From positions 7,812,001 through 7,876,000 of the forward strand of contig CM102289.1 in the NCBI GenBank assembly GCA_046563655.1: DNA of 64,000 nucleotides, read 5' to 3'. Of the stretch, positions 2,921-57,089 are shown piece after piece. The translations under genes were made by a program, and so were the position numbers. The notes beneath the pieces are model-generated. The model did not search any database, had not been told where the DNA came from, and saw only the letters and a program-made list of their open reading frames with translations. Numbering within the stretch: position 1 is the first letter of the stretch; every line of letters starts with the position of its first letter. Source of the DNA: Yuukianura sp. NJ FZ-2021. Taxonomy: Eukaryota.

Positions 2921-3700
2921 CCTTTCACAATCCAGTGTCCCAATGTGACTACCTAATTCTGCTCAAGTCAAATGCAGCAATTCTTATGGTTATTGCAAAT
3001 GTTGAGACAAAAATTTATATTGACTAAACGGTTATGGCTCAATCGCTACAAAAATAAAAAAACCTAATAAAAATTTAAAATATACCAAAAGCCAATTTTA
3101 GCAGCAAGCAAATTTTGACGCAAGTTGCACCTCACTTGCAGTAATTTCAAGATGCTAATTATTACAAAAGGTATTAATTTGCGGACAGTTTTTTTTGTCA
3201 TGCATTTCTCGCACTAGGTTCTGCTCATCCAGAAAATTAACACTAATTTATTTCGAGGTCATCCGCTACTTCTGACTCATTCAAAATTTTGAGTGCAGGG
3301 TTGAAAAGTTGTTGCAGAAAAAATTTTTGAAGAAGATTTGAATTTGGCTTCCTTGCTAGCCAAACAGCGAAGTAAAAAAAGTAAGTAAAAAACGTGATTA
3401 ACAAAATACAGACGAATATTCATCTAACCACCAAGAAAACCTGTTTTCAGTAAGAAATTTTTTGGACTTTTTTTTCAAACTTGCACGTAAACTGTTAAGC
3501 CTTGGACCTTTGCAACCTATAGTCAGTATATTGAAATTTTATAGCAAAGTTGCACGTCATCGGCGAAACAGCAGTGTTAATGACGAACATTGTTTTTTTT
3601 TTGTTGATCAAACAGAAAAGTAAACAAAAGTCAGTCTAGTCATAATTTGGCTGTTGAAAATAGTAGAAATTGTTCAAATCTTTCTTTTAACATTCAAAAA

Positions 3701-5414
3701 ATGTCAGTTTTTGGCAAAATTTGTACAGTTGTGCTGGACATATTTCTAAGCCTCTTAATTTATCCAATTCTGTTCATATTTTTGTCTCCGCTGTTCTTGT
3801 ATCGATGGATGGTGATCTTATGTGTCAAAATTTGTTACCCATCGTACATTCCAGGTAGTTATTTGGACCAAGCTGTACAATTTGACTACTTTGCAACCAA
3901 AGGTGATCCACTAATATTCAGTTCCGGTGCAATGGTGACTGTCCTTGGTCCAGTATCAGTGTCCAGATTGAAAGAACGCTGGAAAAAACAGTTTCTAGAT
4001 GCAGTGGACTCTAATGGAAGACTAATTTATCCAAAACTGAGTGTCTCGCTGGTGAGAATTGGAGGTCACATTTTCTTCAAGCCACTAAAACAACTAAATG
4101 CTCAGGATATTTTTCATGAAGAGGAACTAGATCCCTCGGATTTAGAGAATTTCAAAACCGAATTTTTGTGTCGAGAGTACAAAAAAGACGCGCCACTTTG
4201 GGAAGTAGTTATAGTCAAAATGGGCGAAGAAACTAAAATGTTTTATAGATTTCATCATGTAATTGCTGATGGATACACGCAACTATATTTGCTCAATCAA
4301 TCAATGAAGAAAAGTGGTACACAACTTCCCACGGAACGAGATCCAGAGTATTCTTTTAGTGAATTTGTAAGTCAGATTAAAAATTCTGACTTTTTTAGAT
4401 CAAAATTTTAAAATTCACCAAAAATTTTTACTTTTTGACAGGTTCGAGCTGCAATATCGCTTCCGCGGGTGGGCTATCTTTACGTAACAGAAGTCTTGAG
4501 TTCGAGAAACGGCATTCCACTGACAGCATCATCCGAAGACGCCGTTCGTATTGCGTCGACGCACATTTATTTCTCAGATCTCAAAACAATTTACAGAAAA
4601 ACTGGGTCCAATTTCCTATCAATCAATCTTGCTCTCTACGCCGCCGTTTTGCGCCGAATCCTAAAAGACAAAGGACATGGAGACTTCATTTCTGTTCAAA
4701 CAGCACTTCCTTGGCCTAACCATCCTGCAAAAGAAGGAAAGATGGGAAATCACTTGTAAGTTTGCGCACAATTCATTCAGTTTTAAAGTGCACCGCTAAA
4801 CCATTTTGAAATAGTAATTTTGTTTTTGTTTTTGAATGTTTTGTTTGCCGCCATCAGTTCTGCTGCAATTTTGAAACTTCCTATGACAGAAATGACTGCG
4901 TTGCAGCGTGTCAAGGAGGTGGATGACTGTATTAAGCTATTTTACAAAAGGAGACTGGACAGACTACTGTGGTGGTTCTGGATACCCATGACAGGGGTAT
5001 TTCCGTCGGAGGTCGCTGGACATCTTATGAACTGGGTTCAGCGATCTCTGGGACTCAAACTCATGAGTTCAACGCTTTTGAGCTTTGAAGAATTTGAGTA
5101 CGAAACGGACGGGTCACCGGTCATGGCTGTCAAGCCACTAATTGCAAGATGCAGTTACACAACTGGTAGCCAATAAATTGGCCATTGTTCAAAAAATGTC
5201 TGAAAACTTTTTGAAAACTGAAAAACTGTTTTTTTGTGAAATAGTGTTGATAGCATCTACGGTCATCTACAATGAGCGATGCGAAGTAACTTTTGTTGGA
5301 ACTCCGGCAGTTGCCGAAAATCAGGAAATGATGAACAGGATAGTCGACGAGTACTATTTGGAAGAACTGGAAACTTTGTTGGATGAAGTCAGGCAAACAG
5401 ACTTGCCTGTTTAA
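3701..5414 (+). CDS. WS/DGAT-like (condensation-fold, CoA-dependent) O-acyltransferase, ~485 aa
   Basis: Exons 3701-4366, 4442-4755, 4858-5165, 5245-5414 (1458 nt, in frame). N-terminal hydrophobic segment, PLWEV...YRFHHVIADG catalytic HHxxxDG motif, GNHF motif and LP..(x)..LQRVKEV, typical of WS/DGAT-type proteins. Confidence 0.8.
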
Positions 5415-5685
5415 ACTTTTTGAAAACTTGAAAAATAGTTTTTAAAATGTCTTGTTTAATTTTTCGAGATTGTCAAACAGACAGAATTGTGAAGATCTTA
5501 AGAAATAATTTAGCCACTGGTCGGAATTTTCCACACGCATGTTTAAAAAAAGTCGTCGCTCATCGTTTGTCTATGATTAAAATTAAAATTAAGTCTAACT
5601 TAAACTCTAAGTTAAAAATGTGGACTACAAAAGTTTAAGATGGAAAGAAATTTTTTGTTGGAAATACAATTTTTTTGAATTGTAA

Positions 5686-7339
5686 CTAATGGTAATTTTG
5701 AACTACGACTCTCTTCATCTGTTCGTAAGTGATCCACATGAAGATGTTCCAAGAAACAAGGCGAGAGAATGACGGAAAGAAGCCTTTGTAGAAGGCAGTG
5801 GCGCCCTCTAGCTGAAATGTTTTCACGGCGCAGTCAAAGGCTCCACGATACTTTCCTGTTGCAGAATTCATGTAACGTGTTTTGATCACGTCCACCGGAG
5901 AAGCACAAAGCGTTGCGCAGAAGCCTGAAAAGCACAACTCAAAATTAGTTTTAGTGTTTTCAAAAATTTTTCATAAAATCTTTGAATTTTGAATTTTAGT
6001 CATACCAGCAATAATAGCAGAGGTGAAATGACACGGGATGTTGTCCGTCATGAGTCCGCGGGTAATTATAGACTCCTTAACGAGGTCATAACAGACAATT
6101 TCAGAGACGTTGACGATAGCATTTCTGCCGATGTTCGGAAGACAACCACGCCACAGTCCAGCGACTCCGTCGGCCATGAAAATAGTTCTGTATGCTTGCC
6201 AAGTTCCAGTATAAGCAGTACCAGATCCTGATTTCAGCAAAGATTTTGCCTGCGCCTGGAATCGAACCTTGACCACATCAGTTGGTTGGGCTAAGCATAC
6301 TGCCATGCCTCCTGTTGTAAGTCCAGCCATTATGCGTGCCATAACGTCTAGGACGCCACCGTGCTGACTTTTCTCCACTGAAAGTATAATTTTTTTTTGA
6401 AAAACTCAGCATTTCAAAAAAACTAAGTTGCCGTCTTCTAGAAATAGTCAAATTTTGGAAATACAGTCGCTTTTTCTAATTTTCTGAACATACGTTTCAG
6501 TATTTTCTGGTAGTAGCCTTTGACTGGTTCGTACATTCCGAGTCGGACGGAGGCAAAACACATTTGACGTTGAAGGCCAGCGTTGAGTCCATTGTACAGA
6601 CTCCTTCAAATTTGAAACTCAAGTTGATATTTTGTGTTTTTTGAAATTTTGAAAAACGGCCTTTTTTGAAAAATCCTTCAACTGACCTGAAACCCTCTTC
6701 CCTTGAAATTGTAGCTATGGTGCCCATAATGCCTCTGTAGTGTACAGCAGTAGCTGCATTCGAAGGAAGGCCAATGACAACGCCATGACCTATTCCACCA
6801 ATAGGGACTTTCACCTCACCTTGGATCTGAAATTTTAAAAGTTATTTTTAGAAAATGCTCATCTCAAATCACAAGATTTCATGACATGGCAAATAGTCAT
6901 TGCACATTCGAGTTTATTTTGGAACTGAATCATTTTGGCATATGAATGAAATGACTTTTGTGCTTCTGTGAAAAAGTGGGCGATAAGGTGGCCAGACGAA
7001 ACGGATTCAATGTATTTAGCGTACAACTGAAGTGTCGGGTGATCAAAACCTAAATTGGACTCTGTGACCATTGGAAATTTCAAAGTCCAAAGCTCAGTGT
7101 CCAGTTTGACCTTTGTCTCTTCCTAACCAGGATCCAGTTTAAACTGGAGCTAAGATCGAATGCTGATTGTTGAATCAGTAATTTCCATTTATTTGACTTA
7201 CTTGTAAGCGGACCTTGGCGGTGTCCAATGGAAAAGAAGCGAAATCGGCAAAACATGCTGCTGTTCCAGCCGTTAGCAATTTAACTGGAACTGGAAGTTG
7301 CTCAAAAGCTTGAGTTAGGGTGGCGTCTGACGTCGGCAT
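5686..7339 (-). CDS. UCP2: Mitochondrial uncoupling protein, UCP2/UCP3-like (SLC25 family), ~332 aa
   Basis: Exons 7339-7202, 6826-6687, 6603-6494, 6377-6006, 5924-5686. Three carrier signatures ([41 protein letters not shown]) plus [24 protein letters not shown] and [17 protein letters not shown] probable 5' UTR intron has its acceptor near 7414 and donor near 8068. Confidence 0.93.
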
Positions 7340-10569: not shown

Positions 10570-11744
10570 TTAAATCATATGCGGTTTTAAAGTGTTTAAA
10601 TGAAATCCAACGTAGGGAACTCCAAGGAATTCAATTTTGTCTGTTGGCCAGTACTTCAATTCAGGTTCTTGTTCTGGAACCTAAATCACAAATTCAAAGT
10701 AAATTTTTGAATTTTTTTGGAAAAACAGTTATGTATTGATATTTTCTAAAACGCACCGTATTGATTGCATCAAAGTATGCAAAGAGCACGCATCCAGTGT
10801 AAGCAGCCAGAAATATCAAAATGTGCCAAACTGCATGCAAGTATGGGAAATTGAGCGATGACCAAGTTTCACAAAAAAGTCTGTCATTGACCCAGCATGT
10901 AATGGCCAACACCCACATGAAACCACATCGGGCTCCCAACCGAAAAACACGCAAATTTGTTGACCTAAACCAAAAATATACTTTTAGCATGTCCAATTTT
11001 TCCAAATTTAGCTTTTCAAAAAACTTCTTTTTCATTTTATGTTATACCGTTTGAGTTCATAGGTTAACAAGTAAGCTGCCGGGAGTCCAAGACACATGAG
11101 TACAAATGCATTGACGATGGGATTCAGAAAGGCTAGGGCAGTCGTGAGCAGTGAAATTCCGAGAACAACCAACTGAAAAACGCTCCTGTTGAACAAAAAA
11201 AGTTTTTAGAATGAGTTGTGTCCAAAATTGGACTAAATAATTCAGATAAATTGATTCATCGGCTAATGTTGTGTCTAGCTTTACCTGTTTTGCTTGAGAA
11301 AGAATGGCAAAAGTCGATCAGGGTACCAAAGGGCAAATGCAGCAGCTACAACCCACAGAATTGCAATTTCATCCAGCAGTTGACCTAGCAAGCTCAACGT
11401 AGCATGAAAGTAGGCTGAGCACATTCCGACAATGATGAGCATGGCCCAGATAACATGAATTCCACGATGGAAACTCCGTCCGTAGGGTACAAACAGATGA
11501 ATCAGCAGCGGCGGAAGGGCAAAGAACAAAACGTTGCTTAACTAAAACAAAACCAAACTCAAAATTTAGAAACAAAATTTCAAAAATTGTCATAAAAAAG
11601 AATTTAGAGTGAGGTACTTCATACCGTATTGGCAAATTCAGCAATCCATTGTGATTGGCGGTAGTTGTCTTCACACCAGTCAACTGGACTGCTACCGGGT
11701 CGAATCAATTCAAAATGAAAATCTGCTAGCGTTTTGATCGACAT
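10570..11744 (-). CDS. ACER: Alkaline ceramidase (CREST superfamily), ~277 aa
   Basis: Exons 11744-11625, 11541-11285, 11185-11048, 10964-10757, 10680-10570. Motifs [54 protein letters not shown] and YWP...GVPYV. Confidence 0.95.
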
Positions 11745-14712: not shown

Positions 14713-16083
14713 TTAACGCTTTGGAGATGAAAACGTTTTATATCTAGAGAGGTCGTCCATGTCACCCGGAACGCGGAAAAACATCTTCGGATCGGATCTG
14801 GACGTCAGATCGGTTTTAACTGCCTGTTTTGGTTTCGATTCTGGTTTGGCTGCAGCAGGATCATCCGGTTCCTGTTCTTCCCAATCCTCCGATTCGGTGC
14901 TTTTCTTATGAGTGAATTCGGGGTGAAACGTTTTCATATTTTCCAAAGCAAATGTATGGAGTGGCCCAAGCGGAGCTCCTTTGATGGACCGTCGATTCCA
15001 AAGTACTTGGTCTGGATAAATGTCAATCGTCTGATTGGCTGTAATGATGAGCTTGTCCAGAAGCCACGCTGCGGCTGCGCGGAGACCTCCTTTGGATTTC
15101 CTGTTGACAGGTTGAATCAAGTAGCCTCGGCATTTGGGATCATCCAGATTTAAGTAGTCTTGCAACTCATCCACGTTCATGGCTCCACGCATGGACTGTG
15201 TAAGTAAAAAGTGTGAGCCAAAAATTATAAATTATGAAAATATAATTATATAAAGCAAGCATTAATTGACAGAATTTTAATGCTAATTTACTTGTTAGTT
15301 GAAAATTTACGCACAGCTTTGTTTAGAAAAATGACGAGAAAGTAGCGCGGAAACGGAACTGGGCGTTTCATTTCAAAAAAGTGTTGAAGTTCAGTTTTGG
15401 CTAAATGCAGGAGCTTTTGGTCCGTGGCATCAATGGTGTAGAAAAACGCCTAAAAGTAAAAACCATCAAAAATTTTTTAGAAAAAGCATTCTTCAATAAA
15501 TGGAATACTAAATCCAACGTTTTTAAATTTTTTTTTAAATTTCGTACTGCAATATTAGAGAAACATCTTCGCCAAAGTAAGCGCGGGTTGGTTGCTGAAA
15601 AGAAGTTTAAGAAATTGTCAAGAAACTGAAAAAGAAAATATTTTTCTTTACAAATTTTACTTTTTGACAATTTTTTTACTTACTCTCGTTCCATACAGAG
15701 TAGGAAAGTGTCCAAGTTGGACAGCGTTCTGAAGGTGGGTAGCGCAATACTTCGAAAATGTATCCTATAAGAAGAGACAGTTTTCAAAATTTGGTTCAAA
15801 TTTCCAAATTGGTTTACATTTTTTGAAAAAGTGAGACACCTAATCCCATGACTACTTCTCCGATGTCAACACACGCAATGGACATGTCATAGGCGTTGTG
15901 AATAGCGTTATGCGTGAGATGGACAGTGGCCAATTCGTCCTGATTCACGATGTCATTGGCTCCGTGTCGGTACGGAAAGCCTTTGACATACTCCTTCCGT
16001 TGTGACTTTTTCTTGTCTGAGCAACAGCATATGAACTCTTGTAATCGACGCATCCTCCTCCGGAAATGAATCAATTTACACAT
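14713..16083 (-). CDS. Divergent Arf/Arl-fold protein with degenerate G-motifs (putative pseudoGTPase), ~329 aa
   Basis: Exons 16083-15840 (alternative ATG at 16053), 15764-15684, 15594-15548, 15449-15315, 15195-14713, totalling 990 nt in frame. The spliced product aligns colinearly by eye with Arf1: [96 protein letters not shown]. Confidence 0.75.
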
Positions 16084-16996: not shown

Positions 16997-18420
16997 ATGA
17001 GTAAAACCGGAAAGACCAAGAAAAGTGCCAAGAAGCAAGAGGCTGGAGTGCTTCATCCCAAGAAAGATGATTTCGAATGTGAACTTGAAGAACAAGCAGT
17101 CACTGTGCAAAACAATGGCAAAGTTTATGAGGTCGCTGTTTTAAACAAACTTGATTAATTTAGAGGATTAGAATAAATTAGAATAGTAGATTAGAAATTA
17201 CTAAAACTTAGCATTTTGTAGATGTCCATGGATGCTTTTGGGTTTAACCCGGAGGACATCAAGGTCAAAATCACCGCCACAAGCGTTGTGCTGGAAGGAC
17301 TCCATGAAACGGAAGAAGAAGTGGACGAATTCTACGAAGAAGTTGAATTGCCTGACCGCGTCATTGCATCTACCATTGAAGTTCTGATGAACAAAAACGG
17401 CGTTCTGCGAATTCGCGCGTCAATTCAACCGAAAGTCGAAGAAATGCGGACCGTGATTGTCCGAGAAGAGACGCGAACCGAAGTTATCAAGACGACTACC
17501 CGCACATATACTTGCGACACTGAGATTAAAGTAACAAAGATCTCAAATGCTGAAGGGACAAAGATTCTGGGGGATACTAAGTTTGTAGACGCTTCTGACG
17601 ACTTGAAGATCAAGGACAACAAACTCGAAGTAACTTTTTGCAAAATTACCCGCCTTTGGTTCAAATCCAACGTAATCGAAATCTGTTTGATTCTAGCTCA
17701 ACCTGGACATGAGTGGCCACCGACCAGAGGACATCAAAGTCAGCGTCTCTGAGAAAGTGATGGCAATTCAAGCCATGGCTCACTACGACATAGAAAATCC
17801 GCCTAAAGAGATCCACAAGAAGTACTTGATTCCGGATGGTGTGGATCCGGCAAGCTTCCGCGCACTTTTGAAGAAGAACGGACAGTTGGCAGTTACGGCA
17901 ATTCAAAAAGAACCGGAAGTCAAAGCAACCGCGGTCGAACCGAAACCGAAAGTGGAAGCGCCGGTACCGGCTAAGCCGACTCCCACTCTTCCACCAGGAG
18001 CCGCTAATGAGCCAATTACTTACTGTTGGATCAAGGCCCAAATCATTGAAGATCTGAAGGAAATTGAGGAATTGACGGCAAAATGTGAAGATATCACGGA
18101 ACAAGTTGCGAAAGTTGAGAACATGAAGTTTGAGGTAACTTTACGTGGCATTCCAATTCAAAAATTTGAAATTACTGCATTGCTGAACATTGTTTTTGGA
18201 TTTTTGCTAGGCTCATATTGACGTAGGCGACTTCAAAGCTGAAGAACTTCGGCTGAAAATCACCAAGGATTTTGTTTTGATTGTCTCAGAAACGCGAACG
18301 CCAAAACGTCAATTTCACAAGAAAGTTTTATTGCCTAATGGCGTCAAACCGCAAGCCGTCAAGAACAAGATGACGCCCAAATACCATTTGCTTTCAATAC
18401 TTGCTAAAGTTACTCCCTAA
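16997..18420 (+). CDS. Small heat shock protein (HSP20 family) with three tandem alpha-crystallin domains, ~396 aa
   Basis: Exons 16997-17131, 17222-17629, 17697-18134, 18211-18420, all joined by phase-0 introns. Three repeats: MDAFGFNPEDIKVK..ELPD..NKNGVLRIRA; LDMSGHRPEDIKVS..LIPDGVD..KKNGQLAVTA; IDVGDFKAEELRLK..LLPNGVK..HLLSILA. A probable 5' UTR exon runs from an Inr-like TCAGTT near 16560 to a donor at 16601. Confidence 0.88.
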
Positions 18421-19108
18421 ACTGTTTGTAAACCATCAGTATTAAGTAAAGAACCGATGGAATTTTTATTAATATCAATTTTTAGTCTGGAATTTTTGGT
18501 ATTCGCAATTTTTTCGAATTATAATTTAGTATAATTAACGTTTCATAAGTAGGGAATGTAAAAGGAATGTACCGAGAATTCATTTTTACCGCTCTCGCTC
18601 TCGGATTCTGCTAACACTAAACAGGTTTGGGCAAAAGTCGTAGTCTATTGCTTGAAATATGGAAAATAATTATTCCGGAGCCCAATTAATTTAGAAATGA
18701 AAACTATTAGGGTTAAATAATATAATATATAATATAATTAAAGCATTTAGATTAAGTAATTATCTACTATGGTGTAATGTTAATTGTTTGTAGTGGTGTG
18801 CTTTTCAGCACACAACTGGACTTTTTGAATTCTATGAAAAAATTAAAGCGGGAGTTTTAAACCAGATTCACACGAGAAAGTGAAATCGCGAATTGAATTA
18901 AAAAATTCCAGAGAATCGTGATTGGCATGCTAATTTCATGGCAAGTTGTAAATAACTGTAGTAAATCTGTCAAAATTACAACCGGCTTTTACTTAAAGGT
19001 AGGAATAAGGCATAATTTATTTCAGTTTAATTAGAAGTTGATGTCATTTGGACTTGATTTATTTCTAGTTGCCGTATATCTGCGTTCGACGATAATAAAG
19101 GAATCGCA

Positions 19109-20363
19109 ATGAGTTCAGATTCTCGCGGCCAGTTGAACGATACCGCAACGACATCAAACGAAAATGGAGGCTCAACTAGCAGTAGCATGTACAAAATGAA
19201 ACCGGCATTTGATTTACCTGCGACAATTGAACTTCCGCATGGGATGTATCGTGTCAGCCCAGTGTCCATCATCTCTGGGAGTAATTCACTTCAATCTGTT
19301 ACGGCCTTGTAAGTTACTTAAAACTATTGCATATTTAATCACGTTACATAATTGGGAAAAGACGACTAACGTATCTATGCAATTTCAGATCTTCGTCTTC
19401 GTCAAAGAAGTCACTCGGGTCAAAGGCTGATCTTATTCCACAGGAAAAAATTTCAGTGATTGAGAAACGGCAGATCGAAATTCTGGATAAGCTGAACAAT
19501 TTGCGTGAAATCATTGTCGGTATCCAAGAGAAGTTTGTCTCTGATGAAGAGAGTGCTGAGAAGGACTCGCAACTGATAGAAAACTTTGTGGTAAGTAACA
19601 GAGTCTGTGTCAGAAACCAGAAACACTGAAAATACATTACTTTAATTATAACTGTTGGTTGTTAGGACATTGTTGTCAATGCAAATCCCAGCAAGCCACC
19701 TTTCTCACTACTTTTTCTGCATAAACTATTGCGCCAGTACTACGGAACTTCCGTCAAGATCAGCAACCACCTCCATTCATCAGTCACCGGGCCTCTCCAC
19801 GAGTATTTATCCATTTTCAGCAAACTTGAAACCAGAAACGAGTCAGCCCCAGTGCTTATCAAGATTACGTTGATTTGGAAAAACTGTAAGCATTCCAGCA
19901 TAGACAATTCAATTATTTGATCAAAACGATTATTTTTTCCCTTCTTGTCTTTTCAGCTGAAGACGTCGAGTTGATGGTGAATCCTATCAACGAGTCCTTA
20001 GTCTTTGGAGAAGGAAATCTCGCAAGGTTTCTGTCCAGATTAATTCCAAACGTCTTCCCTCTAAACTACGACGCACTTGACTGGAATACAATGTCACTCG
20101 TGGACGGATTCATTATGCAAGCATTGAATGAAACAACATTCAACATACAAATGGTGGAAGGATATCTGAAAGGAAGAAAACAAAGTACTGACGGTCCATT
20201 TCTTCTCGGTGAAATTAGCATTGCAGATTTCATCACCTTCTCTGCTGTTGCGCGTGAGTTGCTCAAAAACGTGAAGGCAATTAGTTTAGCCAAATATCCA
20301 AACGTCCGCAACTGGATGGACTGTTGTCAACAGTACGGTGAGTTCGAACTATTCGGCTATTAG
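19109..20363 (+). CDS. AIMP2: Aminoacyl-tRNA synthetase complex-interacting multifunctional protein 2 (p38/JTV-1)
   Basis: Exons 19109 (or ATG 19187)-19308, 19389-19590, 19666-19885, 19957-20363. N-terminal MYKMKP..LP..MY motif, leucine-zipper EKRQIEILDKLNNL, DIVVNANPSKPP, HLHSSV, GEGNLARFL and a GST-C-like tail (SIAD..NVRNW). Confidence 0.88.
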
Positions 20364-20615: not shown

Positions 20616-29349
<8,734 letters not shown>

Positions 29350-31321: not shown

Positions 31322-31932
31322 ATGGCAGAGTCTGAGCATGCGTCAACCGTGAAAATTTACGGGAACACGCCATTGTCTGAACGTTTGGGTGCATATAAAA
31401 AGAAGGCAGAAGGAGATAACAGCAATTCAGCAAACTCCGATTCAACTTCAGATGGAAAATGTCGGATGGATGATCCAGAGTAAGTGAGAAAATATAAAAA
31501 TTTGAAAAAAAAAGTTACATAATGAGTTGTTACGATAAAATATTAACCAAAAGTTGAAATTCTGTGTTGATGTTTAGTTATGGCCGACCTGTTGCTGGCA
31601 GTAAGACGGACAGGCGTGGAAAAGAAGCTGCAGCACATGTTGGACATGAAGTGATGGAACTGTGTCGATTAATCCAAGAATATGGACAGCCCCAGGATGA
31701 CGGTACAGTGGAAATTACTTTTAAGGAACTTTTTGACATGTACCAAGTCATCTCCAACAAGGTCGTTGGTGTCCTCCTGCGTGCAAGGAAGCACGGTCTA
31801 GTTACATTTGAAGGTGAAATGCTATTTCAGCGCCGAGATGACCATGTCATCGTGACCTTGCTTGTTGACCCTGACAAAGTTCAGAAAAGTACGGACTCCA
31901 CAGCATGCGTCAACTTGAAAAGCAGTCACTGA
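31322..31932 (+). CDS. ABRA: Actin-binding Rho-activating protein (ABRA/STARS-like, Costars domain), ~170 aa
   Basis: Exons 31322-31479 and 31578-31932. DYGRPVAGSKTDRRG followed by the Costars domain (ITFKELF..ISNKVVGVLLRARKHGLVTFEGEMLFQRRDDHVIVTL). Confidence 0.9.
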
Positions 31933-32411: not shown

Positions 32412-35400
32412 TCAAATGCTGGAAGAGGTGGATGACCCCTCCCCATTCAACTGCCGTAAGTAAGCATTCACTTGACCAGCAGAGTGAATCCCTTGACTCT
32501 CCAAGTCCTTCCAGAAATTGTAGTTGAAGTTCAAGTGCTCACTCACTTCTGGAAGATCCAAGAAAGCTAGACAAATGAAAACAAGGTTTTACTATTTAAA
32601 GTAAAGTTAGGTTAAAGTTTAAATTAGGCTAACCAATGTTAGGTTAGGATAGACAAACAATGTTTCGTTTCACTTACTATCCCAAGCATCAAACATGTCT
32701 GCCACAAAGTAGTCTACAAAACCCGTCTGAGACTTTGGGATTGAACAAGTTTCGCGTTCAAACATTGGCATCACCGGTGGAAGTCCTCGAGCAATTTCTT
32801 CTTCTGTTTGTCGAAAGTACTCTTCTGCAATCCGATTGGCCCAGGCGATACAGAGCTAAACAAAATTTAAGTTTCAGTTTACTTTTCTATTTAATTATAC
32901 AAATATTTTAGTAAATTATAGAATGATTCAGCTTAATAGGGAGTTTGTGTTTCAAATATTAGTTATAGAATTTATAGAAAGTATAGAATTTAGCAATTAT
33001 CCCGCCTCGTTTCACCGCGTGCCACCCGTTTTGTTACGGCTCTCGCGATTTCAAATCTTTGACGTTCAAATAAAATTTGGAAATTCGAAAAGTTTGAAAA
33101 GTGACGTCACTACCCGCAGTAAATTCTATAAGTTTCTATAAATTCTATAAATGATTTATAACGCAAACTGCCTAATACCTTCAGTGGACGCGTAGGGTTA
33201 GCCACGTCAGCACATTTGATGAGCATGCGCTTGATGAGAATGATGTTGTCAGGAGTGACTAAAGTTGAAATGTCAGGTTCCGTTGGTGTCACTACTGGAG
33301 ACGGATTGACGTCAGTGCTGAGACTCGTTTGATGCAAAATCGTGGCTGTCTGAGTCGATTCTGACAGCATGAGTTCATCTTTTTTCTGGAGCGGTTTAGT
33401 AAAGACGTTGATAAATTTGGACAAGTGCTCAAAGTGCTTGGTCATCTCAGTGGCCAGAACCATGTCAATGATGCTCTTGCGAACGGCTTTGTACGTATCA
33501 GTGTCTAAATTTTTAAAAATGTTGACCCGTGGGTCACTCAAGGTCAACTTGAATGCAAAAGCTGCATGATGAGATTCCAATATTGACAAGTCATTGTAGA
33601 GAAGAGAAAGTTCGTTTCCCGTGTTTGTCAAGTAGTGACTACAAAAAAAAATCAAATGTCAGTTTTATTCAAAATTGAACCTTCACCTTTCAGTTTTCAA
33701 ATATTTTTGATTTTAAAACACTTTTGGAAAGCTGAAAGTTTGAAAACCGGAAAACCATTTTAAAAATGAAAACAGGAGAACATTTCAAAAATGCTTTCAA
33801 TCCAAAATGGGCTTTCGAAAAAGCTTTCACCAAAAATGGATTTCAAGAGCAAAGCGGTGCTTGAAATCCACCGATTTTTGTACAGCGTCATTGAAAAATT
33901 CTGGAGTTTGCTATCGCCGTGATGACTTTTACACCGGTTTAGAAATTTTGAAAAAGTTTTGCAAAAGTGAAAACATTTGACAACAGTTATTATCGTCAAT
34001 CGCGTTAAAATTTAGTAAACTAATGGAAAGAAGAAGTAAAAGCGGCGCAAATCAAAAAACTAAACATCGATGCATAAAAGTCAAAAATTGAAAATAAAAA
34101 TTATCTCAGAATTTAAAAATTAGAGTGATATTTACAATCCATTTGAAATTTGAAAAGCGTTAAAATGCCTCAAGTTCTTTTCCATTTCCCGCTCTTTCTC
34201 TCCGTTTCAAAAACACACCATTTGCTTCGAAAATAACACAAACAAACCAAATTTCAAAAATTTTATGCCAGAGAACAATATATCACCTTTCTCTACTCTT
34301 TCTCCTGAGAGAAAATAAACACACAAGACAAAACATATGCTCAAAGCAGAAGCATTTGAAGTTATGGATGTACTAGAAACGTTTTTTTTAAACAGCCGAA
34401 AGTGTTAAATACGCTTCGCCTCAAGAATAGTTTTTTGAAAGAAAGCTTTCCAACCACCCCACCGCCACCGCTATGATTGTTTCTGAGCAAAAGTTTGTTT
34501 GAAAAGTTTTGGTAACAACGGACAGGAAGGCTGGTTTGGGAGAATGTTTACCTAGTTTTGCCAGGATGGTCGACGTCATGGACGATGGCTGCAATGAGGC
34601 TGATGACCTCATCGAGTGGTTCCAGAAATGTCTTGAGTCTCTCTGTTGACATAAAGTAAGCTGTGGCCTGAAAAGAGACAAAAAACAGAGACTCAGTACG
34701 GGTAACTTCAGAACTTTTAGACAAAAGTTGACTCTGATGGACCAGGAGCGTAAAAAGTAAATGTACAGAGTGGCCCAAAATGTTTGGGCAACTTTTGTAG
34801 GAAATAAAAATTCATTAGTAACCAAAACATTTTTCGGTTTTTTTTTGAAATGTTGGTGGACCGCTGTGTACATGCAAGGTTTCGGGGCGTGATGCTTCCC
34901 GGGAGTCCAAGGCTTTAGTACCTTGTTGACTCTTCTGAAAAAGCCTTTACCACTCACTCCCCCCTCCTCCTCCTCCCTCCTCCTCCTCCTCCTCCCCACC
35001 CCTCCTCATTAAGTAATGACAAGCGAGGGGGCTTAACTTTCTCTGTCTAAGCAGACAGTGAAAGCATCTTCGTCCTACGGCTTCCCGGAACCACTTCACT
35101 TTAACAGAGTAAAGTACACACAAGACTCAATTGACAAACTTGACTTTTAAGATTCACTTTTTGAAAATTACTTCTATTTTTTTCAAAATCCTTTTTATGA
35201 AAAATTGAAGCCTCTTAAGCCGCTTTTCACATTATGGTGTAAGTCTCATAAAGTTTAGTTTGGCCTAAGGTGAAACAGTAACGGCTTGGCCAAAAAACTG
35301 ATGTCGCAGGCGCCGGAAATTCGCTAGGAATTTTTACTTAAGACATAAGAGACGGTTTGATGTGTCTCAAATTTCCAATTACGTAAACTTTAATGCTTAA

Positions 35401-38400
35401 AGTCAACTTTACCTTCATAAGATATAGCTTTAATTATTTTGAACACTACTCCTCATGTTCACATTTACTTTGATGTTTGTACTGAAACATTGTCACAAGA
35501 ATTTGAACTCAAAAGTGCATTAAAGTTTACATTACTGAAACTTAAGTCTAGATGAAACAAAAAAAAAGTGTGCTACACATTACTGAATTACTGTGTGCAG
35601 CACAATTTCATAAAAAGTTGTACAAAAAACTACAAAAGTGAAACAAAAAAAGTGCTAAAGAAACAAAAACTTTTGTTGTGAATTTCATTTTCAGCGAGTA
35701 ATTGAAACCCGCAGAGAAAGTCCGGATTTCAAAACTATTCTTGTCAAATACGGTAAAAACTGAAAAAAGTTTGGCGGGAAAATGTTAACAATCCGGGGGC
35801 AAATTTAGGCAACTCGAAATTGTAAATTTGAATAAGATGTGGGCTTTTAAAGCTTCTCATTTTCGTAAATTCCCGCTCTTCATTGACTAATGATAACCGT
35901 CATTGTGGAAATGGAGAAAGCCATGGTGAAAGCCATTTTGAGAGCATTGTGTAGCAGATAGAGAACACACAATGAAAGTAACATTAATCAAGGAACCTAT
36001 TGTAATCGAAATCCATTCTCTCCTACCTTGAGGGTCAGAGTTCAACAATGAAATGAACTGAATCTGTAGTACTGCATCACATTAACCTACTATGTTAGTG
36101 TAGTCTAATCTTATATGCTGCCCATTGACAAGAACAGTACAAAATACTTTGTTAGAAGATTAGTGTTTTACAAATTCGTGAAAATGAGAATCTGTACAAG
36201 TTTTCATTTAAATTCAACCAAACTATTGTTAAAACCTTCTCAGAAAGGCTTAACAGCACGTTCCTGTTCTAAATAAAAGTTAATTAGAAAGTCGGTGGTT
36301 CTAGAGGCTCCTTACTAACTTTTACAAAAGATGGATTACTTTTCTACCATTCTCCTTCAATTTGACTTTCTCTCGTCTTCAACTTCTAAACTCCCGGGTA
36401 TTAATCCTCTTCCACCGCCTCAAGTTTCTCAGAAGTCGGAATAAATCCGAATTTCGGATGTGGGATCACAAAGGGCTAAACTCCCCTGGAGCTTATTGCA
36501 TCATCACGTTATGTCAGGTGAAAACCTAACTTAAACATAACCTAATGTTAACTTACTTGTAAAACGTCAGCGGCATGAGTAGAGTTGTGATATGCATTTG
36601 GCGAGTGGTAATTTGCTTCAATGAGGGTAAGCCAATTCCGTAATGTCGTTTCATCCGTGCCCAGCGTCTGAGCGACGCCGAATCGCGAAAAAATTGCCAT
36701 TCCAGTCCAGACGAGCGGTCTAAAAACAGAAGCACAATTTTTTAAATTAAAAATTAAAGCGTTAATTGAGTAATTAAAATTTGTTAAACTCTGTGAAACT
36801 TCGTAATTAAAAAAAGAATAATTTGTGTCTAAAATTTTGTGTTAAACTTAGTAGTTAAAATCGTGATTCCCAAAATGGTTACAAAAACAAAGTAATTCAA
36901 TTTGGACAAAAAATTGTTTCCGAAAATGAGTTTGTCCTTAATTTTAGAAGATTGCTTAGAAAAGTGAATTTGAAAATCTCACCGTTTTTCAGTAATTTCT
37001 TCTAATAGAATCACATCAAAGTCCCATCTTGCCTCAGTTTCTAGGAGACGCTGAAGTCGGCCCGGAGCTTCTACAAAATATCAAAGTTAAGTTTCTACCA
37101 AAAACAAAATCTCCAATTCTACTAAATGTTGAAAAACCAAATCTGTAACCAGCAAAATGGTAACTACAAAACTGTAAATCTTAATAAAAATAAAGAGAAT
37201 GGAAAAATAAAAAAAAGGAAAACTGAAATAGGAAAACTTGCTAAAACAAAGAAATTTTGGATTCCAAATTTGCCGGTACAGATTTGTATTTTCGAAATTG
37301 GATTTACAAAAATGTCCAACCAGTGAAACGGCGTGGAATTGTCGTACCAGCAATGTCAGGCAGAGATGGCCGTGGAGCTAAGCGTGAGGCCGTGTTCTCA
37401 TTAGACGAACGACGCACTGTTTGCAGAGACTTTGGCCCTTGCTGTTTTCAAACAAAAACAAACGAAAGTTCAACAAAATTTAATGAAATGATTTCTAAAT
37501 TAATCAAGCCAATAGAGAAATACACACAGCTAGAAATGGACAAGGAGAAGTTAGGGGTGAAGTGAAAGCCAAAATAGAAAAAAACAGCCTTTAAAAATGA
37601 AAAGTAGAAATGTCAAGCTTAATTTCAAAATTTCAGAAAATGACTTACAGAAAGTAGAGCCCCGAGGAGATCAGTAGTGAGGGGATCATCAGTTCGCGGT
37701 CGATTTCCTTCAAAAAACTGCGGAGAGTAGAGTTCCGTTGTCCGCAGAATTTCCAGAACTTTGTCCAGGGAATGAGCGATGTAGATGGGACAACTCTGTT
37801 GAGCTGCAGTGATGATGTTGATCACTTTTGTAATCGGAGCTTCAATTGTCAACGAGTGCAATTTGGCTAAAACGAAAACCACAAACGCTCAATTTCAAAA
37901 TTCTAAAGAAGACTTCATCGCTAGTACAAAAAAAAAGTTTCGGAAAATATAAGATTAATGGTCCTCTTTTCCATTTTTTTAATTTTTCCAACAGCCTTGG
38001 TGAAACTTTAAATCCTCCAAATTTATGCCAAGCGAAGTTCCCTTAAATTTTTTGGACAGTTTTTCGTTAATTTTGAAAATTTTGAAATAAATAACCTTAT
38101 GTTAAAGGGCGTGTAAGACCATAGGGGACAACCTTAATCAAAATTCCAGCCTTACGTTAGTACTTACCCAAACTTTGTCTCCGTAGAATTGAGCCTTCGT
38201 CATCAGCACCAAAGTTGGGCAATTCGGATGGGAAAAGTTCCGGCGGAGGATCATTTGGAGGTGGTCCAATTTGAGTTGAAGGGGATGAGGGTCATGTCAA
38301 GGAAAAAAGAGAAAGTAGGAAGCGGCAAGTATGAAAAGATTTAAGATTTTGAGGCAAAAGGAGGCATTAGAAAGAAGAGGTTTCGGGGGAATTAGGTTTT

Positions 38401-41400
38401 GGGTTAGACACATTACGGGCATGGGTAAAAGTTAGGACACGGAGAAAGTTTGGGTTAATGATAAAAAGAAACGGTGAAAAGAGGGAGAAAAAAGAGAACA
38501 AGAAAATTTCTCATGAGAATTTGCAGCAATAATTTCCGAAAATAAGAAGATATGAAAGAGATGTTTAAACGAGAGTGAAAGCCAAAGATCCATCTGTGTA
38601 CAGAGCGAATTTCGAAAAACCCAGTTCATTTTTTGCAAACTTTTAACTTTTTTTTTGAAAACTAACATTCTGGTCACGCTTGCGCTTTGTGCCAAGTTCG
38701 TCCCTGCACAATTATCTCTTAAGAGAGAAAAAAAATGAATTTTGCGGGAGTAAATTTTCAAAAAATCGCACAGTACATAATCCTTCATAGAAAAAAAACG
38801 GAAAAGTTTCTGTATTTTGTGAGCTTTTGGCTGGAAGTGAAAGTGAGACTTTGGATTTGTACCCGGAAGAACTCTTTGATCAAATCTGTTTGGAAAACTA
38901 ATTATTGGATGGCGTGAGGTGCGTGTAGGATCTTTGGCTTCTCACTTCTGCCTCTTCCACCTCCAGGAGGCGTCAGAGGTCAAAGGTCAAAGAACTAAAA
39001 GAAACAGGAGCTTACTGCTGTCATTGCTGATGGATTTGATGTCATAGGAGGCCTTGCGCAGGGATTTGAGACTTCCGCGAGGCATTGGATTGTAGCCACC
39101 ACCTCCAGCTGCCTCCGTCGTCGTGAGATCACTCGACAAACTTTTCTCTCGGTAAGCTGACGGAACTTCAGAGAGGTAGATGTAATGCGTCGTCCCACCG
39201 CCATCCGCCACCACTCTCCTAAATTAACCAAACTTCGGATTAGAATAAGTGCCAAACCGCAATTACCAAAAAGGCTACACGTCTCAATAAAGCCCATTCT
39301 CAAAAAGTTGTCAATTTGACTCAAATTCTGACAAAAGTTTATCCTCAAACTTGAAAACTGAGGTTTTGGAATTGACTGTTCCCCAGCAACATTTCAGTTT
39401 TGAATGACGTTAGAGCAACACGTTGCGAACTTTGCTTTAAAGGCGTCTAGCCAATTCAAAAATGTTCTATTCAAAAAACTTCAAAACACGACAAAACTCA
39501 GGCTTTGACTTTTTGAAAATGCTTTACATTTTTTTCGAAATTCAAAGTTATAAAAGTCAAAGTTGAAAATTGAGTTTTCAAAAAACACGAAGGAGTTTTT
39601 GGGACAAAGGAAACGGATGCAGATGAGGAAACGCTACGGAATCGCTGAAAATTTTATTTCCGTTTTTTACATTTATTTTTTTTAAATTGGGATTTGGAAA
39701 ATTCAGCGATTCAGAGCGGAAGTTTAAGCAAGAAAAACGGCTGTTTTGAATAGCTACGAAAAAATGAAAATTCTAAGGAAAAACGAAAAAAATGTATAAG
39801 ATCTTCTAATTTATCGGAAACGGTTTTACGACTTAGAAGGCAAATCGGAAATAGCAAAAACCGGAGTAACTAAGGAAAAGCATCATCTACAGTCAAACGG
39901 AGTCACCCAAGTATGACTTATTGGAAAGAAGTAATTCAATCGTTAAATCGTTTCAGGTCAAAATGCCATTTCGAAAAACTGGAAAAAGACATTTCAGAAA
40001 AAACTCAACCGTTCTTCCCATTCCAGTTTCAAAATTCAATCTAATTTGGCTTGGAGGGAAAGATTCATAGTGATGGTTTTGAAAATACAATTTTCAAATA
40101 TGATTTAACATTTCGAATAAATTGGAAATGTTCTAAATTGACAAAATCCTGGATCAACTATGATTCCAATCGCAGATTGTGCAAAATTGGGTAAACTGAT
40201 TTTCGAGAACTTAAAAATTTTGAGAAAATTTTCATAAATTTTTGAATGATTTTGTACAAACTTGGTTTTTTCTTGTTCTGACGTTGGTGGTGGAGGTTCC
40301 TGATCTGTTCGACTCGCTCTGCGAGCGAAATCGTGAAGCGTAGAGAATGGAAGAAGTCTTGAATTTAGAAAAAGCGGTTCGCCTGTCTTTTTGTTAAAAA
40401 TGTAATTGCCCTCCCACTGCCTTCCAGAAGTCAGTTCGTCCAGAATGTGGTCATGGAAGGTTTGGTGGGCCTTGGAAGGTGGTGGGGCTGACAAGGCAGA
40501 AGTGGCAGGAGTTTGAAGTGGGGCCAAAGCAGTTGTTGGAGACGTGCTGTCTTGAAGGTTGGTGGGTGGGTTTGTGCCGCCACCACCAGCAACAACATTT
40601 GATCGATTTGGATTATTATCACTTGTTGAAGGAACTGGAGACTGACGCGTAGCTGCCCAACTCTGTTCAATCCGATTTTGAATTTCTAAGAAATCCAGTC
40701 CTAGAAGCTCTTCGGAACTGAATCCAAGTAACTTCTCATAAGCACGATTTACAAACTGAAAAAAGAAAACGAAAATTTCAGATTCTTTTCTTGAAATCTA
40801 AAAATATTTTCCCGGAACAAAATTGGACATTCCACTTCCATCATTCAGATGTTTTGAGACAGCTTAGGGAATTATTTTCAGAACATTTTCAAACAGCTTT
40901 TGAAAACTTTTTTTTTTGGAAAATGCTAAACTTCATAACATTTGAGCGCATTTTCATTCTCATCCATGAATTCCCACAGTTATGTGTCTGATCTCGTGTT
41001 ACATCAAAGGAGAATAACCGTTTTTGAAGTTGAAATTTTATTAGGCTAATGCCACTAGGCAGAGGAGCTAAAGCTGGAACTTTTAAACGTCCATTTCAAT
41101 TTTGTTGCCAAAAGAAGACGGATTTTGAAAAACGGGCATAAGCTTTATTCACCTCAACGATTTTTTAGCCTTGCTTTCTTATAGAAATGCGCTGGGAATG
41201 AATCGAACGTTCTTAGACTAAATTGAATTACTTTATTGAGAAATTCCAACTGAACTTTTTTTTTCATTTCTATTTGTTCGGTTTCCAATATAAAAGAAAA
41301 AATGGACTCGATCTTTGCTAACAAAAGAAAAAGAAATCGATTTCTTATGATTAACCGTTTTCCAATTTCTAACAAATAGAGTGAAGCCCTAACTTAAAAA

Positions 41401-44400: not shown

Positions 44401-47400
44401 ACTCTCATCTCCATTGACGTCATTCTCATCTACTTCTCCCTCTTCTCAATCAAATCTTCTTGATGAGACTCTCAGGCAACGCATTAATGGGAAAGTCAAC
44501 TTAGCCAAATTCAGGCTAAAACTGTAGTGAGCTAGGCTCACTACAAATTCTACAAACTTTTGCTCGTAGAAAAGCTAGAAATTTTGTTTCTACAGAGTAA
44601 AACTGAAGATTTCAGGTTTCTTAGGCGCGGAAACCTTAAATTTGTAAGTTTTAAATTTCCTAAGGTCAAAAGGTTATCAGATCCACTTTTTTATCTTTTT
44701 TTATAACTCCAAGATTCGGCTAGGAGCAAAATAGAAAAACTTTAATTTAAATATTGAAATTCCAAACAAAAAAAGTGAGGTTTGCTCTAATGAAATTTTT
44801 TAGAACTTCAAAGTGATTTAAAAAGTGTAAATACCTAAGCGCGGGAAAATTAAAACTGAAAGTCAAATGACTACAAAAATTTTCCGCCACTGAAACCTAA
44901 ATAGCAGAAACAACAAAAATGGCAGCATATGGCTTTAAGCGTGCTACGTACTTTGAATTATAGGTGAATAGAAAACACTTCCTGGCAAACAAAAAACTTT
45001 GGCGACAGGATGAGAAAAAGTTTTGAAAACTTTAGGTTTAGGCTTTTCGAACTAAAACTTTTGCTTAAACTTTTCATTTTGAAAAAAAATGCGCGCAAAA
45101 CTCTAAAGACCGAGGCTTACATAGCAATGTCATTCATCACGTGCATAATACGGCTAAATGGATTCCCGATTTTTCCGTAAATATGTCTCAGAAATGTGCT
45201 TCATTTTGAACTATTTTTGGCATAAATATTGTTAGAAAAGTGAATTTTCAAATTTCAATCAAAATTTCGATTTTGCGACACACAAATTACATTTCCCGCT
45301 AGCGTTCTATGTATATTGGTTAGAATTGAGTTGAATACTTACTTTGAGTTGTCTCGGTCTGTAGATGGACACTGGACCCATGTGAATCAGCGTTTCTTCT
45401 CCGGACAAAGACACTTGTCGATCCTGTCCAAAAAAATTGAGGAATGAAATTGAGTTTCCAAATTTGTGCAAAATGGAGCTCCAATTTTCCCCACTTTTCA
45501 CCATTTCAAATACGAAAATACTGATGCTCAAACAAATTGAAAACTGACTGCACGTTACCCAGTTACGAGCAGAACAAGACTCTTGTGATCTGTAGCTCCT
45601 TGTTCTTTGGAATATTCTCTTTCCTTGTTTAGTGATGCACATCGTCTCACTTTCAAACCAAATTTACTCAACTACGAAGTAAACCTTATTTACTCAAGGT
45701 ACTGCAAAGACTGATTGGAATTGTTAAGTGCTCATTGGGAGGCATACGACTAGCCTATTTACGCAAATAATTTGCAAAATATAGTTTGGTGGACACGTCA
45801 CAAAGTGGAGCACCACATTGTCTACACAAAATCAAAGACTAGACTGACCTTCAACTCAAATCCTATGACTTCGTCTTACAAACTGAAACTGTTTCATGTG
45901 GCTTGAGTTTTCCACTTCTAAAATTATTGTGAAAGTTTTCACCACGAAAAGTGTTACATATTTAAACGAAAAAGCCGCGACCTGTTTTTTATTTCAAACG
46001 CAAACCAGGAAAAAATGTGGTTTCAAAATATGACTAAAAATGCGGCAGAACAAACAAGATGAGTGTGTCGTGTGACATTGACGCTTCCCGATGCGTCATT
46101 TTGTGTTATTGCCCTGTCAAAAAATTGTCGTATGTTGAGAAATTGCTTGTCGCAAAAATGTCGCAAAATGTCCTGTCAACTTTCTTACAAAACAGAACCC
46201 ATCTGCCTGTCATATTAATGTTGTCACTTTCACAAATTTCAGTTTTTCAAAAAAACTCTGTGTAAAAAAATTTTCTAACTGTAACTGTATCTTACCGCTG
46301 CATGTCTTGTGTTATGAAAGATTGTTTTCAAAAACATATAGTTCTCAAAATTTTTGGTTTTTTTGTGAAAAAAAAAGTGTGAGTGAGTTTACCTTGTCTG
46401 TCATGGTGAGAGATCGTTTGGCGTTTCCGAATTGTACAGAAGGAGTCTGCGACACTTTACGACAATTTGACGTCGTCTCTGGATTCTGTTGTTGTTGATC
46501 TGCTGCCTTTTCACCTGAAAAGTAACAAGAATCAACTTAAAAATCATAATTTTTGTTCAACTTCAGATTTGCAACCAAAGTTAACGAAGAAGTTGGCTAA
46601 CTGAGTGGGAAATTGTAAATAAATTGGTGTTAATCTGCGGTTAGTTGCCTCAATTGCTACTCCAATACACTAAATAGTTCAAGTACTTTGTATACGTCAA
46701 CATCCTCTGCCAAAATGAAAAGTGTGTGTAGACTAACACCAATTTGACAAATGTACTCAACACCGCAATCAATTCACCAACCATAACCACCCAAAAGTTC
46801 ATTTATGTATGCCTAAACGCCGTTCCTTGTTTTTTAAATTTAGCGGTCGGGATTTTTTTTTTAGATAAGCAAAATCTCCAACACGAAACGTAAGCCACAC
46901 GCAGAAACTTTTCTAATAATTTTAGCATTTCGAATTTGTAAACTTGAAAACAAAAATTCAATTGTAATGGCTAACTTAAACAAGATCATACCAGTATGGT
47001 GGTGGTGGTGGTTTAACATCGATTTTTGAACATGACAAAATTGCGAAAGTGACAAATGACGAAATGGCGAAAATGACGAAATGGAATGACCTGCTGGAAA
47101 ATTCGAATTTCGTTTTGAAGTAGCTTGACCACACAAAATCTGGGTCAGAGCTCACAAGGTCAATCACAAAAGAAAATATGACTACTTTTTTTTATTTTAT
47201 AGAAGTGATTGAAATCATGTGCTTTGCATTTTGAAGTGTTTGATTTCGAGATTGTTTATATTTTGAGTAAAGAGTGCGTGGGCGCTTTACAGAGTATGTT
47301 TCCATAACAATTTCCCAGATCATAAATAATACTTAAGAATGAAGTTTTCTTTCTGCTTAGTTGGTGGTGGTGGAGCCATGGATGATTTTACGTAGGAGAA

Positions 47401-56971: not shown

Positions 56972-57089
56972 TTTGCTATCTCCTGAAACAGTTTGAAAAA
57001 TTAGTAATCCCAACTCCTACTAACCTTTGTAGCACCACCAGTATTAAGTATTACCTGTTCGCTTATTCTCGATTACAGGCAAGAGTTGG

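Follow-up and report, generated by a model that had tools for sequence, protein, structure and literature searches.

A conserved five-exon animal gene for an Arf-family protein without recognisable G motifs, a probable membrane-anchored pseudoGTPase

The window analysed in this study is a stretch of 64,000 nucleotides (nt) from Yuukianura sp. NJ FZ-2021 (contig CM102289.1, positions 7,812,001 to 7,876,000), and it carries on the minus strand, at 14713-16083, a split gene for an Arf-like protein in which none of the five G motifs of GTPases (G1 to G5) can be recognised. The five exons of this gene (Table 1) join into 990 nt, which make 329 codons and a stop codon, and a TAA stands in frame immediately 5' of the ATG. 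A shift of 1-2 nt at three of the exon boundaries breaks the frame, which thus depends on the exact junctions. An earlier reading of the locus, here called the sequence-only reading, had proposed this five-exon frame for 329 residues together with its 47-nt and 81-nt exons; joining the exons confirmed it at the same coordinates, and the peptide stretches which had been quoted from the protein are all present, several of them across exon junctions. No paralog of the Arf-like gene was found within the window, and a search of the whole window with Rfam gave no match.

The gene is conserved in a second species. When 1.84 billion cluster representatives were searched exhaustively with exon 5 by phmmer, the sole match at E <= 0.001 was a protein of 140 residues (P0001, E 2.1e-11, 42% identity to exon 5), the only member of its cluster. 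Its source is a metagenome contig of 5958 bp (L001), on which the spliced protein matches all five exons by tblastn, and P0001 corresponds to exon 5 of the ortholog. The exons of this ortholog measure 220, 81, 47, 135 and 438 nt, its introns run from GT to AG and its frame is intact over 306 codons. Exons 2 to 4 are equal in length in the two genes, all intron positions and phases match, and 115 of 302 aligned residues are identical in a global alignment of the two proteins (38%). The search for orthologs which the sequence-only reading had suggested has returned a gene with an intact frame, five matching exons and no disabling mutations. Just upstream of the ortholog, L001 2460-2476 is pyrimidine-rich, ends with TAG 4 nt 5' of the ATG and resembles a 3' splice acceptor; it may be the end of an intron in the 5'-untranslated region or a trans-splice site.

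At the nucleotide level, tblastx of L001 against the window gave eight plus-strand pieces that share a single E value. The four strongest of them and one weaker piece cover the five exons, and the remaining three are short (21.7-26.3 bits) and lie elsewhere, at 6332-6385, 21494-21541 and 44810-44887; two antisense pieces lie over exons 1 and 2. Identity between the two proteins is distributed very unevenly. By residues of the window protein it amounts to 33% at 1-36, 15% at 37-69, 66% at 70-107 (switch I and the interswitch), 48% at 108-134, 46% at 135-169, 39% at 170-220, 42% at 221-253 and 13% at 254-329. The proportion of synonymous differences (pS) is 0.74, which means saturation; for nonsynonymous differences, the proportion (pN) is 0.43 over the whole protein and 0.36 in the core, residues 60-253. 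That the frame is still open at such a distance, with its junctions and several blocks conserved, shows purifying selection.

Beyond this pair, no annotated ortholog was found in the protein collections searched. Among longer candidate proteins, none of 350 matched exon 5 at E <= 0.001 and none of 2782 matched the exon 5 alignment at E <= 1, and none of four candidates of nearly the same length matched the exon 1 alignment. Another contig, L002, was tried as a relative and rejected as spurious, since its tblastn match (23.9 bits, E 0.064) is confined to a single short stretch. Motifs of eight and five residues common to both orthologs are absent from the supplementary FASTA of PMC8358228, a search in which only exact matches count. 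Searches of the literature on pseudoGTPases and the ARF family brought up no protein of this family from an animal that has lost every motif, and other parts of the supplement of PMC8358228 and the supplements of PMC13393502 could hold relatives.

To which family the protein belongs was assessed with custom profiles. The Arf reference was made of giant-virus open reading frames (ORFs) from IMG/VR contigs, which were found by degenerate DNA patterns of consensus motifs; 33 of 34 distinct Arf ORFs were used, and L164 was dropped, its P-loop region being not Arf-like. The control profile was built from 113 Rab/Ras-type ORFs of viral contigs, found with a similar DNA pattern. These collections are an observation in their own right: the giant-virus contigs of IMG/VR (L003-L008 and L129-L166) hold at least 33 distinct full-length Arf ORFs with Gly2 and intact G motifs, and more than 113 distinct Rab/Ras-type ORFs are found in viral contigs of the same database.

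With the hidden Markov model (HMM) of the 33 Arf sequences, the window protein scores 45.1 bits (E 4.4e-16 for one sequence; domain at residues 110-218) and the L001 protein 27.8 bits (E 9.3e-11 for one sequence), as against -0.4 and -3.4 bits with the HMM of the 113 Rab/Ras-type sequences. Shuffled versions, 1000 for each protein, reached at most 11.5 bits (window) and 2.1 bits (L001), with HMMER scoring only 470 and 342 of them. When the alignment of the two orthologs was compared with the Arf reference by hhalign, the probability was 97.9% (E 6.1e-13) over 143 columns, covering residues 70-223, as against 0.7% with the Rab control; a smaller Arf profile of four sequences gave 36.5 bits for the window protein, 21.0 bits for L001 and 96.2% in hhalign. 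In the reciprocal direction, a profile of both orthologs found 31 of the 33 Arf and 3 of the 113 Rab-type sequences at E <= 1e-3, the top Rab standing at rank 32. True Arf and Rab proteins do match the profile of the other family, with medians of 64.2 bits for the Rab/Ras-type HMM on the 33 Arfs and 49.7 bits for the Arf HMM on the 113 Rab-types, presumably owing to the shared nucleotide-binding motifs, which the window protein lacks. As a lead only, the top three ESM Atlas matches of exon 5 are Arf-family fragments (0.86, 0.84 and 0.84); exon 1 gave no usable match there.

The hhalign alignment also specifies what is kept of the Arf signature. V-W-N and R-L-L-W-R, both conserved in L001, align with W-D-x-G-G-Q and R-x-L-W of the Arfs, while relative to the Arf profile switch I is three residues shorter and the interswitch hairpin holds an insertion of eight residues. 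At the level of sequence, homology with the Arf family is established for the part that begins at the end of helix alpha1 and reaches to the C-terminal helix. The sequence-only reading had aligned the protein by eye with Arf1 along the whole G domain; the alignment holds over residues 70-223, and over residues 37-69 no confident alignment is reached. In this segment, which should contain strand beta1, G1 and alpha1, MAFFT and an ungapped extrapolation from the hhalign block give different registers, the former assigning the conserved Y-[VI]-K-G-F to strand beta1, followed by an insertion, the latter placing the conserved I-H-N at the site of the would-be P-loop.

Regular expressions for GxxxxGK[ST], GK[ST], DxxG[QHTA], [NT]KxD and [SC]A[KLT] found no occurrence in the full protein of either ortholog. 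The replacements which had been read by eye at G3, G4 and G5, namely NETTN, NKAS and NR, were recovered as described by the hhalign alignment, and the loss of the G2 Thr also stands, since a gap in switch I removes it. The claimed absence of G1 needs rewording: no recognisable P-loop occurs anywhere in the protein, and this is not a mapped deletion, as the register of residues 37-69 is uncertain. The same segment, which would include the P-loop, shows the lowest conservation within the domain (15% vs 66% for residues 70-107), a pattern suggesting that the phosphate-binding region has been free to drift and that the face which true Arfs use for effectors has been the most constrained. With the P-loop, the switch I Thr, DxxGQ, NKxD and G5 all lost, the protein most likely binds no guanine nucleotide.

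Additional regions flank the Arf-like domain on both sides. The cluster of three Cys with a basic run, pointed out by the sequence-only reading, is conserved, in that L001 keeps Cys-Cys and an Arg run at the aligned place. Residue 2 of the two proteins is Cys or Leu, and so N-myristoylation is precluded in both, in agreement with the reported lack of Gly2. The N-terminal segment is basic and its maximum hydrophobic moment is 0.76 in the window protein and 0.74 in L001; residues 2-15 appear helical in a model of the exon 1 fragment, although only at low confidence, with a mean predicted local distance difference test (pLDDT) score of 47.8. On the C-terminal side, a tail of about 110 residues, acidic and rich in Pro and Lys, had been described. 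A tail does follow the domain; however, its first 33 residues form a conserved extension, for which neither Pfam nor the PDB profile search gave a family match, and only the last 76 are of divergent, mixed-charge character, with 14 Lys or Arg, 16 Asp or Glu and 8 Pro.

Table 1. Coordinates of the Arf-like gene, of the protein features mapped on it and of neighbouring genes in the window
Feature	Position	Strand	Remarks
Exon 1	15840..16083	-	244 nt, residues 1-81 and 1 nt; ATG 16081-16083; L001 equivalent 2477-2696, phase equal
Intron 1	15765..15839	-	75 nt, GT..AG
Exon 2	15684..15764	-	81 nt; equivalent of switch I/interswitch, most conserved block; L001 81-nt exon 2783-2863
Intron 2	15595..15683	-	89 nt, GT..AG
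Exon 3	15548..15594	-	47 nt; equivalent of switch II; exon needed for the frame; L001 47-nt exon 2945-2991
Intron 3	15450..15547	-	98 nt, GT..AG
Exon 4	15315..15449	-	135 nt, residues 125-169; equivalent of beta4-alpha3-beta5; L001 135-nt exon 3065-3199, 49% identity
Intron 4	15196..15314	-	119 nt, GT..AG
Exon 5	14713..15195	-	483 nt, residues 170-329 and TAA 14713-14715
Arf-homologous region	15034..15876	-	residues 70-223, interrupted by four introns; hhalign 97.9%
Cys19-Cys20-Cys21 codons	16021..16029	-	followed by a Lys/Arg-rich run; candidate S-acylation site
G3 equivalent	15587..15693	-	residues 106-111, WNETTN for WDxGGQ, split by intron 2; L001 WNDNFQ
G4 equivalent	15193..15323	-	residues 167-170, NKAS for NKxD, split by intron 4; L001 NRPN
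G5 equivalent	15097..15108	-	residues 199-202, VNRK where giant-virus Arfs have C/S-A-x; L001 IRGR
Conserved extension after the Arf-like domain	14944..15042	-	residues 221-253; 14/33 identical to L001 (42%)
Divergent mixed-charge, Pro-containing tail	14716..14943	-	residues 254-329; 13% identity to L001
Mitochondrial carrier (two exons)	5689-6405	-	Pfam
Alkaline-ceramidase-type gene	10697-11541	-	Pfam
AIMP2 (LysRS-binding and thioredoxin-like domains)	19058-20360	+	Pfam
Class I myosin with TH1 and SH3	20619-27923	-	Pfam
Costars	31558-31929	+	Pfam
PAS-plus-PDEase (PDE8-like) gene	33113-40797	-	17 kb from the Arf-like gene
PARP16-type gene (ARTD15_N and PARP)	56177-57016	-	Pfam

Regarding the neighbourhood, the genes recognised by Pfam around the Arf-like gene (those for AIMP2, the PARP16-type protein, Costars, the PAS-plus-PDEase protein, the class I myosin, the mitochondrial carrier and the ceramidase in Table 1, together with HSP20 sequences) are of animal type and thus indicate an animal genome, with a GC content of 36.8%. 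The HSP20 sequences lie about 1.1 kb from the Arf-like gene and are transcribed in divergent orientation to it: at 17222-18218 on the plus strand, two overlapping frames, 17222-17749 and 17697-18218, which are in different reading frames, each match HSP20/alpha-crystallin (E 3.2e-7 and 5.8e-8), and they represent either one small heat-shock gene with tandem domains or two adjacent genes. Within the myosin gene, in the gap of about 3.2 kb between the myosin-head exons 23269-23523 and 26702-27061, a frame of 232 codons lies antisense at 25395-26090 (plus strand); it is Gly-rich with G-G-F-G-type repeats, has no Pfam match and may be a gene nested in a myosin intron. On L001, a PDEase_I exon at 5335-5628 (minus strand) lies 1.6 kb from the ortholog, and its orientation differs from that of the PDEase gene in the window. 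No direct match was found between the neighbours on L001, the PDEase included, and those in the window, so that synteny or linkage is not established.

As for the function of the gene, we favour, with somewhat better than even confidence, the reading that the locus holds a functional animal gene, restricted to its lineage, which encodes a lipid-anchored Arf-family pseudoGTPase of class i with a fixed docking surface. These classes are reportedly those of the classification of Stiegler and Boggon (2020). The ancestor would have been an Arf/Arl GTPase, whose core, beginning at the end of alpha1 and reaching to the C-terminal helix, was kept and whose G motifs were all lost. A basic amphipathic helix at the N-terminus, the Cys cluster and the polybasic run probably hold the protein permanently on a membrane, by S-acylation and by charge. 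Since the effector face of true Arfs is the part best conserved here, the face made of switch I, the interswitch and switch II probably serves as a docking surface, one that would be fixed and independent of nucleotide, for a partner; the conserved extension of 33 residues and then a presumably disordered tail follow the Arf-like domain. The protein would thereby act as a scaffold that is anchored on a membrane and has given up nucleotide binding. A more specific proposal, which we hold to be possible though rather doubtful, is that the protein represents an undescribed family of the animal lineage which arose independently of ArlEM, Arl13, Arl15 and Arl16 (discussed below), and whose frozen switch face would be a constitutive membrane receptor or decoy for a reader of the Arf-GTP surface. 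If an animal protein combines an Arf core with the loss of all G motifs and an N-terminal Cys anchor, evolution would have reached this solution more than once, and a natural frozen Arf surface would allow effector faces to be studied without the nucleotide cycle. What is more, genes with exons as short as 47 and 81 nt, of which the Arf-like gene is one, are absent from public protein sets within the reach of the present searches.

A number of points weigh against the favoured reading. The gene model is known here from genomic sequence alone, and the relatives found amount to one ortholog, that on L001. Because synonymous sites are saturated, no reliable ratio of nonsynonymous to synonymous substitution rates (dN/dS) can be obtained. 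The profile check with PF00025 which the sequence-only reading had put forward turned out in a mixed way: Arf homology is significant with the custom HMM and hhalign, while for single exons the sole family match of Pfam is PF00025 (Arf) on exon 4 (profile positions 86-124 of 174), with an E value of 0.06 and a score of 13.3 bits, under the cut-off of 22.3 bits. Neither exons 1 and 5 nor the three exon pieces of L001 have a Pfam match. With PDB profiles, exon 4 matches ARL6 (E 0.93) and a Leishmania ARF (E 1.2) at the expected positions, both ranking below chance matches to the IP3 receptor; exons 5 and 1 gave unrelated weak matches only, and exon 5 alone gave none by sequence. The N-terminal third of the G domain, residues 37-69, is not confidently alignable. 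The AlphaFold2 models of the exon 5 and exon 1 fragments, which were made from two-row alignments, have mean pLDDT values of 44.3 and 47.8 and are too low to use, so that the fold of the spliced protein is suggested by homology over 143 columns. Moreover, missing canonical motifs do not prove that nucleotide binding is absent, and both the lipidation and the partner are purely what we infer.

The rival explanation to be taken most seriously is that there is no new family at all, and that the gene is an extremely diverged ortholog of an S-acylated ARL paralog, most likely Arl15 and otherwise Arl13 or Arl16, with its pathway kept; in the Arl15 version the protein would bind the CBS-pair domains of CNNM magnesium transporters. 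When human and Nematostella Arl15 from the supplement of PMC8358228 are compared by eye with the two orthologs, the same order is seen of Cys-Cys, a basic and Pro-containing stretch, a motif of R-P-E-Y type (R-K-E-Y in the window protein, R-P-A-Y in L001) and the first strand. According to the available part of that article, Arl15 typically has several N-terminal Cys predicted to be S-palmitoylated; and in what is available of PMC10348743 and PMC12722892, ARL15 purifies nucleotide-free, has a micromolar affinity for GTP and is without the catalytic Gln, so that it is already partway to a pseudoGTPase. No sequence in the PMC8358228 supplement bears the name DmeArl15, CelArl15, AvaArl15, DpuArl15 or IscArl15, for which the species codes were guessed. 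However, where all ARFs and many ARLs carry the interswitch Trp, ARL15 carries Lys (PMC10348743, available part), and this Lys is seen in both Arl15 sequences compared, whereas both orthologs here keep the Trp. The P-loop of Arl15 is likewise absent from the window protein, so that, of the Lys, the P-loop and the Cys cluster of Arl15, only the last is by eye held in common. In addition, the exon-level PDB searches brought up no chain of ARL15, ARL13 or ARL16, the best reciprocal matches are ordinary Arf-like proteins of giant viruses, and the Arl15 likeness was judged by eye and not by a subfamily profile. On balance we consider such an ortholog unlikely.

Two other explanations have much less in their favour. 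It is very improbable that the protein is still a nucleotide-regulated switch, with non-canonical residues that bind GTP, GDP or some other nucleotide: several ARLs have aberrant and very weak nucleotide binding that is perhaps stabilised by partners or membranes (PMC12722892, available part), and the I-H-N motif is conserved in both orthologs inside the variable residues 37-69, but neither species has any of the five G motifs, the Lys and Ser/Thr of the P-loop and the Asp that specifies guanine being among the residues lost, and the region of the would-be phosphate-binding loop is the least conserved of the domain. That the locus is a pseudogene in decay, or that the gene model reads too much into an open frame which arose by coincidence, is hardly credible. 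The genomic basis of the model, the missing annotated ortholog and the failure of any single-exon Pfam match to pass the cut-off would fit it; against it, two species at 38% identity share an intact frame over five exons joined at matching places, the frame cannot do without the 47-nt and 81-nt exons, the conserved blocks persist although synonymous sites are saturated, and the tblastx similarity on the exons is strong.

A lipid-anchored Arf-family pseudoGTPase with a fixed docking surface, which is the reading we favour, has its closest published analogue in ArlEM of the Eumicrosporea (Microsporidia), here compared by its description. As given in the available part of PMC13393502, published in 2026, ArlEM belongs to the Arf family, has disrupted G1-G5, bears between one and three Cys near the N-terminus for which S-palmitoylation is predicted, and is kept throughout its clade with the paralog of origin unresolved; its authors propose a class i pseudoGTPase whose function is unknown. 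It is the first clear case in the Arf family with all motifs degenerate. The window protein resembles it in family, in its disrupted G motifs and in its N-terminal Cys. Unlike ArlEM, which is described from Eumicrosporea only, the gene of the window lies in an intron-rich animal genome among animal-type neighbours, and its protein also has the 8-residue interswitch insertion and a tail of about 110 residues. Its four introns and animal-type neighbours place the gene outside the microsporidian group, and we infer an origin independent of ArlEM. Lipid-anchored pseudoGTPases of the Arf family are already known from microsporidia, and what is new here is the animal lineage. The recognition of pseudoGTPases within the Arf family has only just begun, and the available part of PMC12722892 treats several ARLs as undecided cases.

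Among the ARL proteins, Arl15, Arl13 and Arl16 have N-terminal Cys predicted to be S-palmitoylated (PMC8358228, available part). The window protein is like ARL15 in its N-terminal Cys cluster, which is palmitoylated in human ARL15, followed by the R-P-E-Y-like motif before the first strand, and ARL15 is itself atypical in its nucleotide-free purification and its missing catalytic Gln (PMC10348743, in the part available). Unlike the window protein, ARL15 keeps the P-loop and a G4 of NxxD type in the sequences seen, together with its micromolar affinity for GTP, and as far as the available sources describe it, it has about 200 residues, Lys for the interswitch Trp and no long tail. The likeness to ARL13B/Arl13 consists in an N-terminal Cys-Cys, palmitoylated experimentally in C. 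elegans and mammals, and a long C-terminal extension of low complexity (PMC8358228, available part). Unlike the window protein, Arl13 retains G1 and G4 in the sequences seen and has Phe, not Trp, before G3, and its tail is described in the same part of that source as a long coiled-coil with a Pro-rich region; between the window protein and Arl13, no similarity was detected beyond that general to the Arf family.

With canonical Arf/Arl proteins, represented by the 33 Arfs of giant viruses, the window protein shares the Trp before G3, R-x-L-W in switch II, hydrophobic beta4 and beta5, W-L in the last helix and, as a candidate by hydrophobic moment, the N-terminal amphipathic helix. It differs from them in having no Gly2 and no G1-G5, in a switch I shorter by three residues, in an interswitch longer by eight, and in its extra N- and C-terminal regions. 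To judge from its motifs, the window protein is a homolog of the Arf family and not a GTPase. Among recognised pseudoGTPases, RHOBTB1 and RHOBTB2 are of class i, and ARL14 and ARL15 are atypical (PMC12722892, available part). RHOBTB1/2 belong to other branches of the Ras superfamily and have other architectures; the window protein would be like them in the mode proposed here, in which a domain derived from a GTPase neither binds nor hydrolyses nucleotide and serves as an interaction module.

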